Positions 18,507-20,337 of a DNA stretch of 64,000 bases are shown here, piece by piece. The DNA comes from Dehalococcoidia bacterium. GTDB taxonomy: Bacteria > Chloroflexota > Dehalococcoidia > Lucifugimonadales > JADFKI01. The stretch is from contig CBDCRO010000003.1 in NCBI GenBank assembly GCA_965221045.1, positions 96,016-160,015 on the forward strand, in the 5' to 3' direction. How positions within the stretch are numbered: the first letter of the stretch is position 1; every line of letters begins with the position of its first letter. The notes beneath the pieces are model-generated. The model was not told the origin of the DNA and searched no databases. It was given only the letters and a program-made list of their open reading frames with translations. The translations under genes and the position numbers were made by a program.

Positions 18507-19061
18507 TCACGTCACAGACGCCAGACTCCCGGACGGGTCCGGCACAAGCTCCAGGTAGATAAGTGTTGTCTGAATCGACGAGTGCCCCAGCCAGCGGGAC
18601 AAGTAATTGATCGGAATACCGTTCATCAACAGGTGGCGTGCGTAGCTGTGGCGTAGCGTGTGAGTTCCGACTCTCTTCCCCGGCGCAACGGCGCCCAGTT
18701 CCTCGGCACGTTTCAGGGCCGCCTGCACCCAGCGCCAGGCTGTCGCGGGGTGCGCCTCGACGATTCTGCCCTGGATGATGTCCCCGTAGGCCAGCGCGCT
18801 GCCCAGCGCTCCATGCAACTCCGGATGCAACGGCACAAGCCTTGTCTTGCCGCCCTTGCCGGATCGCACACGCACCGTCGGATTGGGTGTATCGAGGGAC
18901 AGGTCCCGCACTTCGAGGTCGAGGGCCTCGGATACACGAAGACCGGCCCGCCACTGCTCCAGCATCAGCAGCTTCGCCTTCGGGTTGGGCGCTGCTCTGA
19001 TGATGGCGTTCACCTCGTCAGCTTCGAGATACTCCGGTATGCGCTTCTGGCGTTTGGGAGT
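18507..19061 (-). CDS. small tyrosine recombinase (FimB/XerD-like catalytic domain), 3' portion of a gene interrupted by IS110 type-2 copy a
   Basis: RAGLRVSEALDLEVRDL, HTLRHSYARHLL and WLGHSSIQTTLIYLEL give the R..HxxR..H..Y pattern. The track ORF extension to 19274 runs through the IS right end. Confidence 0.8.
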   Translation of the reverse strand, partial: TPKRQKRIPEYLEADEVNAIIRAAPNPKAKLLMLEQWRAGLRVSEALDLEVRDLSLDTPNPTVRVRSGKGGKTRLVPLHPELHGALGSALAYGDIIQGRIVEAHPATAWRWVQAALKRAEELGAVAPGKRVGTHTLRHSYARHLLMNGIPINYLSRWLGHSSIQTTLIYLELVPDPSGSLASVT

Positions 19062-19075
19062 ATCCGTGTTAGATG

Positions 19076-20047
19076 TCAAGCCGATCCGGCCTGATAAGAT
19101 GGGCAGTCGCTCCCGTACCGTTTCACCCAGGGAGTTCCTCGACGCGCCACGGCGTTTAGCTGCATCAGCAGCTTGCGTGCCACTGCTATCACAGCTACCT
19201 TGCCGGGTTTGCCGCGCTCCCGAAGACGCCGATAGAAGTCGCGTAGGTCGCCATCTACCCTGAGCACCACCCAAGCACAGATATACAGCGCCCGTCGCAC
19301 CGTCCCACGACCGCCTCGAATGGACCGATTGCCACGCTTTTTGCCGCTGTCACGCGACCAGGGAGCAAGCCCCACCAGCGATGTCAACGCCCGTCCGTCC
19401 CGCCTGCCAAGTTCGGGCAAATATGCGATAAGTGTAGCCGCGGTCAGCTGTCCCACTCCGGGTACCGTCTGATACAGTTCGACTGTCTCACTGAGACTGG
19501 CGCTGCGCTTCAACAACTCCTTGTACTCCTCATCCAACCGCTCTATCTCTCTGTCCAGCCAGCGGATGTGACGCCTGGTCGACTTCCCGACACTCCCGCT
19601 TACGCCCTTGTCCAGTCGGTTGCGCTCCCGCACCCGCTGCTCGACAAGTTGACGCCGCCTGCTCAGTAACTGCCGCAGCTCCTCACGGTCAGGATCCACA
19701 TCCGGTTGTGTTGTGTCCGACTCGGAGAACACCACGCCGTAGCGAGACAGCACCTGAGCATCGAGAGGGTCGGTCTTCGCCTCGTATCCGCACGCGCGGG
19801 CAAATGCGCGCACCCTGACCGGATGCGCCACTTCTACGCCGATCACCGTCTCCCTCAGCTTGCCTACCACAAGACGCTCATACCCACCGGTGAACTCGCA
19901 CACCGCCTTGGTCACACCTGCCCGCTCCAGATGCCTGAGCAACCTGCGAATGCCTGTCGCGCTGTTCTCAAAGCGGAGCACGGGACCTTCAGAAACTGAC
20001 ACCTCCAAAGTTGCCTTCGATACATCTATGCCTGCTACGACTATCAT
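19076..20047 (-). CDS. IS110-family transposase (type 2)
   Basis: VAGIDVSKATLEV, FTGGYERL and [32 protein letters not shown]. Paralogous to 29812-30732 and 61926-62879. Confidence 0.9.
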   Translation of the reverse strand: MIVVAGIDVSKATLEVSVSEGPVLRFENSATGIRRLLRHLERAGVTKAVCEFTGGYERLVVGKLRETVIGVEVAHPVRVRAFARACGYEAKTDPLDAQVLSRYGVVFSESDTTQPDVDPDREELRQLLSRRRQLVEQRVRERNRLDKGVSGSVGKSTRRHIRWLDREIERLDEEYKELLKRSASLSETVELYQTVPGVGQLTAATLIAYLPELGRRDGRALTSLVGLAPWSRDSGKKRGNRSIRGGRGTVRRALYICAWVVLRVDGDLRDFYRRLRERGKPGKVAVIAVARKLLMQLNAVARRGTPWVKRYGSDCPSYQAGSA

Positions 20048-20268
20048 AGTCCGACCTCCGTGTGTATTATGCCGTTGTGCTCCACACTTGCAGATGCGGG
20101 CCTCGTGCCCTTGTATCCGTTCGGAGCCACAAATGCGGCGGGAGGGGTGTCATACTCCCAAACGGTGCAGCCCGGCGCAGCAGCCTGGCTCACCCAGTCG
20201 CTCACGACGCGCCCCTCTCACCCACCTCACAAACTGACACGTTTGCAAGTCAAATACAACATACAAGT
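20048..20268 (-). ncRNA. candidate bridge-RNA-like leader of IS110 type-2 copy a
   Basis: Block-conserved in four copies. Its variable blocks match this copy's own junction (GTTTGGGAGT against ACT+CCCAAAC at the right junction; TGCGCCG against the left flank CGGCGCA). Confidence 0.55.
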
Positions 20269-20337
20269 TGCGCCGTCCTGTGTTTTAGGGTAACGCCCGC
20301 GGGGCCTGTGCCGGCGGGAGATTGCTGTGATGGCCAT
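20269..20337 (-). pseudogene. displaced 5' end (23 codons) of the small tyrosine recombinase gene
   Basis: ATG at 20337, then MAITAISRRHRPRGRYPKTQDGA, ending exactly at the IS left junction. It is in frame with 19061 downward if the IS and one ACT copy are removed. Confidence 0.45.

Follow-up and report, generated by a model that had tools for sequence, protein, structure and literature searches.

What is the small tyrosine recombinase gene that an insertion sequence (IS) of the IS110 family appears to have split in a sponge-type SAR202 bacterium, and would loss of the IS restore it? The locus lies within C4:96016-160015 of a 4.19-Mb assembly of four contigs (the window; 64,000 nt, with window positions given below without prefix). 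The IS (‘copy a’; Table 1) interrupts a tyrosine recombinase gene of 207 codons between codons 24 and 25, with ACT on either side. On the minus strand, ATG at 20337 starts 23 codons (MAITAISRRHRPRGRYPKTQDGA; 20337-20269) and, past the second ACT (19061-19059), CCC AAA CGC CAG... stays in frame for 183 codons, up to TGA at 18509-18507. Without the IS and one ACT, 24 + 183 = 207 codons remain and the rejoined sequence of the window reads ...CAGGACGGCGCAACTCCCAAACGCCAG.... It is almost certain that the IS splits the recombinase gene and that its loss would restore the open reading frame (ORF); scarless excision is known for the IS110 family. The best overall explanation of the locus, which we consider probable, combines this split gene with a multicopy recombinase unit, lox/dif-like sites and the mechanism set out below.

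Searches with the downstream 184 residues identified six intact paralogs and ~18 fragments in the same genome. The six intact paralogs read M(T/A)TTAISRQRRPRGRYPKTQDGATPKREKRIPEYLE... unbroken, with the same ~24 residues fused to the catalytic domain; translated together with upstream DNA, their N-terminus is M(T/A)TTAISRQRRPRGRYPKTQDGATPKREKRIPEYLEADEV. One of these, paralog E (C4:361983-362612), holds GGCGCAACTCCCAAGCGC, the empty-site DNA predicted from the split gene. In four relatives (G008, G005, G002 and G009), DNA matching the window up to 19061 abuts DNA matching it from 20267 onwards (86–92% identity), with no IS. P0066 (210 aa, found on four metagenome contigs) has 99% identity to the downstream 184 residues and starts MTTESSTVISRRRRPRGRYPKTQEGATPKRQKRIPEYLE, the matching N-terminus. 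In a collection of 5.8 billion proteins the family has >4,500 members, typically of 207 or 210 aa. Because of the intact paralogs, the IS-free relatives and P0066, the frame fit is more than a one-in-three coincidence.

These results agree with most of what an initial annotation, made from the letters of the window, had proposed. Direct reading of the minus strand gave the same coordinates, frame and arithmetic for the split, the suggested search for uninterrupted homologs of ~207 aa in related genomes returned many of 207–210 aa, and the empty-site sequence was present in paralog E. Paralogs, relatives and P0066 all have the same start, rather than the different, longer N-terminus named as contrary evidence, and restoration of the ORF by precise IS loss is backed by all three.

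The N-terminal part of the protein is conserved. Among 23 aligned homologs R11, R16 and G17 of this arm are invariant or nearly so, and the arm with its RPRG core is kept even in members at only 57–63% identity; it probably contacts DNA. The insertion separates promoter, start codon and basic arm (RRxRPRGRYPK) from an otherwise intact catalytic domain, so the window copy is almost certainly off. That the upstream 23 codons are instead a chance in-frame ORF, and the recombinase a relic already truncated before the IS arrived, might be suspected from the many decayed family fragments in this genome, but is hardly credible: the arm is conserved family-wide and joined to the rest without a break in paralogs and relatives, the downstream part has its full length, with all catalytic residues and 99% identity to an intact homolog, and the near-identity of the IS copies points to recent spread.

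Table 1 Features of the split recombinase gene, the IS and the surrounding unit and sites (window positions).
Feature	Position	Strand	Basis or remark
Recombinase codons 1-23 (MAITAISRRHRPRGRYPKTQDGA), conserved basic N-terminal arm with RPRG	20269..20337	-	Read directly
Left ACT core, recombinase codon 24 (Thr)	20266..20268	-	ACT at both junctions in 16/16 IS copies
IS110-family IS, 1,204 bp, ‘copy a’	19062..20265	-	16 copies sharing ends
Untranslated IS leader, 218 nt	20048..20265	-	Sequence and minimum free energy (MFE) fold
Transposase gene, 323 aa	19076..20047	-	PF01548 (DEDD_Tnp_IS110), PF02371 (Transposase_20)
Right ACT core	19059..19061	-	Sequence and IS copy alignment
Recombinase codons 25-207 and stop; complete catalytic domain (R, K, HxxR, H, Y)	18507..19058	-	PF00589, E 1.6e-22
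Ankyrin-repeat gene, 362 aa, cargo between motif and recombinase	20412..21500	-	Pfam Ank families
Site II, 29-bp palindrome TTGCAA-N2-ATGTATCGG-N9-TTGCA	21646..21674	-	nhmmer and MAFFT alignments, 45 copies
Conserved 58-nt spacer between sites I and II	21675-21733	-	Completes ~120-nt motif
Site I, 25-bp variant of TGCAAG-RAAATAC-N4-WWWK-CTTGCA; left unit boundary	21734..21758	-	Unit homology begins here
Solo 27-bp site, inverted relative to site I	15733..15759	+	Matches Uma2 flanks elsewhere in its left half and left flank; right half differs
Further solo 27-bp site	11407..11433	-	–

PF00589 is the only Pfam domain in the recombinase (80.5 bits for the downstream part in the window; cut-off 27.1). 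The motifs GLRVSE, GKGGKTRLVP, HTLRHSYA, LGHSS and LIYLE align to catalytic positions of XerA (4a8e) and do not vary among 23 homologs. In NCBIfam and PDB the protein matched best to the catalytic halves of archaeal XerA (4a8e, 5hxy), XerC/D and IntI, all far under the respective cut-offs: the XerA model NF040815 gave 110.6 bits (cut-off 220) with a match limited to profile positions 84–254, the XerC and XerD models (TIGR02224/02225) were likewise not reached, and the integron integrase model TIGR02249 gave 86.7 bits (cut-off 265) with a split match, the protein being merely 207–210 aa. No SAM-like or core-binding N-terminal domain was identified in the recombinase, which is thus not a full-length Xer protein. 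Profile, XerA alignment and homologs support its earlier description as a tyrosine recombinase of 207 codons with R, HxxR, H and Y motifs and no N-terminal SAM-like domain. Foldseek matches were exclusively to tyrosine recombinases (TM ~0.3, weak support). The family was found only in metagenome-assembled genomes (MAGs) of SAR202/Dehalococcoidia, with many copies per genome, and together with the upstream motif described below is confined to one genus among those searched (12–16 of 21 genomes); neither was present in 12 further families of the order, represented by one genome each. A literature search found no published description of the recombinase family or its sites. At ~207 aa this minimal tyrosine recombinase family, with its own sites and its restriction to one sponge-symbiont lineage, is among the smallest known.

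Alignments of the copies and their flanks show that the gene stands at the end of a multicopy unit, which was seen in a single genus of sponge-type SAR202/Dehalococcoidia only. The order in this unit is a 27-bp palindrome (site I), 58 nt, a 29-bp palindrome (site II), optional cargo on the same strand, and the recombinase. The two palindromes and the spacer form a ~120-nt conserved motif upstream of the recombinase on the same strand, with at least 13 copies in this genome and >30 loci in other SAR202/Dehalococcoidia MAGs, including the sponge-derived bin90; the window copy lies at 21646-21758. In the basic form of the unit the motif ends ~25 nt before the start codon. Otherwise 0.1–3.3 kb of cargo, always on the same strand, lies between them, as with the ankyrin-repeat gene here; cargo elsewhere includes VapBC, a recurrent 162-aa ORF, a 132-aa membrane protein, and DUF1643-like, HNH and pentapeptide proteins. 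One unit type, found across genomes and contexts, has 93% identity from motif base 1 to the recombinase stop codon and is unrelated outside these limits. Junctions of cargo insertions and deletions (presence or absence of a 100-aa ORF) had no site-like repeat at their edges, and no contiguous copy of the flanks of five units from this genome was found elsewhere.

The half-sites of both palindromes change jointly in recombinase subfamilies, from TGCAAG to TGTAAC, and distant subfamilies have just one palindrome, placed between a TTGAC/TGGACA box and the start codon. Such joint change, with a palindrome near a promoter box, fits a unit-encoded binding protein with putative autoregulation at site II. 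A promoter/terminator consensus scan of 18300-21900 gave 0 promoter-like sites, and the promoter reading uses weaker boxes judged by eye. In the genome of L043 the variant TGTAAC pattern matched the unit’s own site only, which is uninformative on solo sites there. An RNA reading of the 120-nt motif was considered and rejected as weak: the RNAalifold consensus was merely −1.26 kcal/mol and no Rfam family matched. In the two hairpins of the motif some G-C pairs are swapped to C-G, but both hairpins are short, have 15-nt loops and were judged to be DNA sites.

Sequences resembling site I are also scattered away from recombinase genes. Approximately 32 good copies of the 27-mer with unrelated flanks were found in this genome, including four in the window. 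A consensus was derived from 31 sites; the loose site pattern gave 74 matches in the genome versus ~19 in shuffles. The strict pattern gave 20–24 matches in the four genomes richest in the recombinase, 5, 1 and 1 in three others, and 0 in 15 genomes of the genus, while a reversed control pattern gave 0 in all genomes of comparison. Paralogous flanks begin or cease to be homologous at the site or within it: C1:1967679 and C1:2909454 share 89% identity over 527 nt from site position 1, C1:1560733 and C1:217201 share 98% identity from position 18, and the left flanks of C4:111748 and C4:213221 are common up to position 29. Half-sites were then compared with flanks for 85 sites, taken from three genomes and from fetched loci. 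Pairs with only the right flank in common agree at site positions 18–22 (0.75–0.95 versus a background of 0.38–0.60) and not at 6–7, and those sharing the left flank only agree at positions 6–7 (0.92 and 0.80 versus 0.65 and 0.52), locating the switch in homology between positions 13 and 17. The consensus has inverted arms around a short spacer and, across the 85 sites, half-sites travel with their own flanks; in this pattern the 27-bp sites behave as lox/dif-like crossover sites.

Several loci illustrate the arrangement of solo sites. At C4:466501-468329 (L104:3002-4830), three co-oriented 27-bp sites, 0.7 and 1.1 kb apart, give a cassette-like array in which a 351-aa PIN-like gene, a DUF433/PIN toxin-antitoxin pair and a 153-aa membrane-protein gene are set apart by sites. 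Where Uma2-family endonuclease genes end in …AELEAELRRLRGE*, a 27-bp site comes ~100 nt later (window 15575-15759; C1:1970761, C1:2924380, C4:213221; loci L024-L035). The DNA past this site varies: bin90 has the recombinase unit there, the window has a 319-aa XerC-like gene, and further loci have other DNA.

From the pattern of flanks and half-sites we infer that the recombinase acts on the 27-bp sites, and we lean towards a lox/dif-like, module-joining enzyme whose window copy was switched off by guide-directed IS110 insertion. The small recombinase would bind TGCAAG/CTTGCA half-sites as a dimer, with the basic arm replacing the missing core-binding domain. Strand exchange in the 4–7-bp spacer of site I-type sites could then join, swap, invert or delete blocks of accessory DNA, and the overlap of site II with a promoter-like stretch would allow autoregulation.

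Several observations weigh against this proposal. No second site was found within 5 kb 3′ of the recombinase gene at >40 loci, and conservation of synonymous sites along the gene shows no dip at its 3′ end; because the right boundary (the stop codon) has neither a site nor extra synonymous-site conservation, the recombinase unit does not conform to a simple two-site module. Among the 119 right-flank pairs, many consist of copies of this unit, and the genomes compared are kin, so that counts of co-occurring recombinases and sites are not independent. Another recombinase, either host Xer or the multicopy 319-aa XerC-like family, could act on the sites. The AlphaFold2 model (from an alignment of 23 sequences) is poor (mean pLDDT 62.9, residues 1–32 <50), and contact of the arm with DNA is not readable from it. 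A syntenic empty site for the window locus or for paralog F was not found in 21–30 relatives, in which the flanks are not conserved.

The missing right-end site also bears on whether the unit could be a self-mobile element (IS-like or mini-integrative), with a circle integrating at 27-bp sites and solo sites representing empty targets or footprints, the enzyme then not being a general module shuffler. Copies with 93% identity in unrelated contexts of different genomes, with sharp ends at site I and the stop codon, would be expected from such an element, as would solo 5′ and 3′ remnants with one fixed end and the many units directly behind Uma2-gene flanks of a kind that, at other loci, terminates in a solo site. 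However, integration of a circle should have produced a hybrid site on the right, where none was seen within 5 kb, no tandem or circle-junction arrangement was found, and solo sites also join types of module that lack a recombinase, making this explanation unlikely, if still worth keeping in view. We regard as improbable the simpler idea that the palindromes are mere operators of the recombinase or another DNA-binding protein, with the mosaic due to illegitimate or homologous recombination at short repeats. The location of site II, and of the single palindrome of distant subfamilies between the TTGAC/TGGACA box and the start codon, would suit an operator, and weak support for RNA structure makes a DNA-protein role likely. 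A flank switch inside the spacer, with half-sites travelling with their own flanks, is nevertheless the pattern of strand exchange and not that of a regulator site, the adjoining protein is a recombinase with a complete catalytic set, and co-oriented arrays with sites 0.7–1.1 kb apart separate single cassettes.

The proposed module-joining system has counterparts, each differing in important respects. pdif/dif modules of Acinetobacter plasmids (XerC/XerD) are similarly imperfect palindromes of 27–28 bp (arm, spacer, arm) scattered in accessory DNA, marking joints of toxin-antitoxin and defence-type gene modules, with half-sites travelling with flanks. Here, in contrast, the sequence is unrelated to dif, a dedicated multicopy 207-aa recombinase consisting of the catalytic domain only takes the place of the host XerC/XerD pair, and the recombinase unit, with its two palindromes, lacks a second site at the far end. 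Single-recombinase Xer systems such as archaeal XerA-dif provide the best sequence and fold matches and also have one recombinase and one palindromic site beside the gene, but the family here is without the core-binding N-terminal domain (110.6 vs 220 bits, NF040815), has tens of gene and site copies per genome rather than one chromosomal dif, and occurred in just one genus of those searched. As in integrons (integrase and attI/attC), the recombinase gene lies next to a primary site and promoter-like region, cargo is co-oriented and promoterless-looking, and small site arrays separate single genes (C4:466501-468303). Unlike in integrons, the IntI-specific extra domain is missing (86.7 vs 265 bits), cargo lies between site and recombinase on the same strand, the sites have 27 bp of conserved sequence rather than long attC hairpins, and cargo insertions and deletions are without sites at their edges.

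The gene adjacent to the recombinase encodes a YA-repeat lipoprotein, and the initial annotation had placed the recombinase in the size class of FimB/FimE-type invertases, next to the lipoprotein promoter region. An invertase serving this promoter was not borne out. Like FimB/FimE, the protein has ~200 aa, consists of the catalytic domain only and, if the inference on the sites holds, acts on short sites near its own gene; size and place beside the lipoprotein gene therefore fit a FimB/FimE-like enzyme flipping the promoter segment, and NF007371 gave a weak match (E 7e-7). This match reached only 28.9 bits against a cut-off of 222, however, and the catalytic domains of XerA, XerC/D and IntI fit better. 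No inverted repeats were found around 18404-18506 or the lipoprotein 5′ region, apart from 15–21-nt pairs at chance level, and the region of 100–160 bp between recombinase and lipoprotein gene is unique in the genome. Homology among paralogous units ends at the recombinase stop codon, placing the lipoprotein gene outside the unit, and this gene lies beside none of >60 other copies examined. With no inverted repeats, a unique region and no lipoprotein gene beside other members, the idea of an invertase for the lipoprotein is unsupported and very improbable; the sites of this family, unlike those of FimB/FimE, are 27-bp palindromes dispersed through islands, with no invertible promoter segment. 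A 17/19 match between 18385-18403 (lipoprotein 5′ region) and the IS left end (20248-20266) was dismissed as chance, with similar pairs in the same scan and no extension.

The IS itself is present in this genome as 16 copies with 99.8–100% identity, plus about a dozen diverged relatives. In the window it begins at 20265 (TGTATG; TGTATGTTG...) and ends at 19062 (...AACACGGAT, ACGGAT). Alignment of the 16 copies gave identical ends and ACT at both junctions, with left flank GC(G/A)ACT and right flank ACTCCCAA; all 16 are flanked by ...RACT on the left and ACT(C/T)(C/T)(C/T)AA on the right. These ends, shared at ≥99.8% identity, independently confirm the boundaries that the initial annotation had used. 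The transposase passes the model NF033542 (‘IS110 family RNA-guided transposase’; 204.7 bits, cut-off 140). The leader contains GAGCGACTGGG and GTTTGGGAGT, the latter being the reverse complement of the right flank ACTCCCAAAC (10/10), and in the MFE fold the blocks GCGACU and GUUUGGGAGU face each other across one predicted internal loop, reportedly the bridge-RNA target-loop layout published for IS621. The GCGACT and GTTTGGGAGT blocks match the flanks of the 16 copies, and ACGGAUACAAG in the leader matches the joined IS ends; the donor-guide loop (ACGGATACAAG) was judged by eye only. Unoccupied perfect 11-mers (GCRACTCCCAA) number only four in 4.19 Mb, one of which lies at the same codons of paralog E. 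Since the guide blocks of the leader match the site and few perfect targets are unoccupied, the insertion appears to be a guide-matched, targeted event rather than a random one.

This element resembles bridge-RNA-guided IS110/IS621 in its DEDD_Tnp_IS110 and Transposase_20 domains and NF033542 score above cut-off, a ~220-nt non-coding leader upstream of the transposase, a short core (ACT) at both junctions, and sequence-specific targets matching two leader blocks in one internal loop. It differs in that guide and target are assigned by sequence, the entire leader folds no more stably than its shuffled versions (z −0.35), and neither the leader nor the motif upstream of the recombinase matched an Rfam family (scan of 16000-23000, E up to 1). 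IS insertion per se is routine, yet this is a clean natural case of guide-matched IS110 targeting (10/10 match to the leader block). What makes it noteworthy is the target family, and that one mobile system strikes another.

About half of the 16 copies of this IS (IS110-a) sit at the same codons (…TPKSGEGEVEMI…) of the transposase gene of a second IS110-family element, IS110-b (transposase 358 aa, ~20 copies), within which IS110-a habitually nests (C1:268304, 1996530, 2022730, 2848959, 3003586, 179097 and 2957882, outside the window; L017:2375-3451). IS110-b is in turn inserted inside site I of paralog E (L017:2220-2390 = C4:362702-362872), where its right end (…TATAGGAGCATC) replaces the ATGCAAG arm, and the recombinase unit has thus been struck by both IS110 types.

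Taken further, and only tentatively, these elements may form an undescribed self-contained system of sponge-symbiont SAR202, in which a 207-aa recombinase with a conserved basic RPRG arm and no core-binding domain would assemble and reshuffle accessory blocks via its own 27-bp lox/dif-like sites, with RNA-guided IS110 elements targeting recombinase genes and sites. The accessory blocks in that reading are defence genes, toxin-antitoxin pairs and eukaryote-like ankyrin genes, and the family sits at the joints of accessory-gene blocks. With IS110-a striking the N-terminal codons and IS110-b striking site I in paralog E, one mobile system would be policing another. If the inferred activity of the recombinase holds, it would explain the build-up of variable islands in uncultured symbionts, including genes for eukaryote-like proteins, show a recombinase working without the usual core-binding domain, and offer a very compact recombinase/site pair to try as a tool.

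Family members are also broken by other insertions: at L041:2100-5474 a 1.7-kb insert with a 441-aa ORF breaks the 5′ part of one member at codon 53, and at C4:391109-394828 in this genome another is broken by a 2.8-kb insert near codons 37–49. Many solo fragments corresponding to the last 70–165 nt of the recombinase gene, with the right end fixed at the stop codon and a variable left end, are found in this genome (e.g. C4:330350-330422, C1:286171-286335 and C4:357123-357284) and in relatives; intact paralog C is followed, after 613 nt, by one such fragment that shares its orientation.

The solo site at 15733 is located ~100 nt past the end of a Uma2-type gene and 143 nt upstream of the 319-aa XerC-like recombinase gene (15902-16861, plus strand; SAM-like N-domain and PF00589). 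This gene belongs to a multicopy family (at least 8 copies, 71–89% identity) sharing a promoter-proximal stretch, …TATAAT…TTATCACGCATTTAGA…. A 27-bp site lies upstream of the window copy and of none of the other XerC-like copies, so the XerC-like family is not systematically tied to the sites. The inverted sites at 15733 (plus strand) and 21734 (minus strand) bracket a 6-kb segment that includes both recombinase genes, the lipoprotein gene and the ankyrin gene, and recombination between the two would invert this entire segment.

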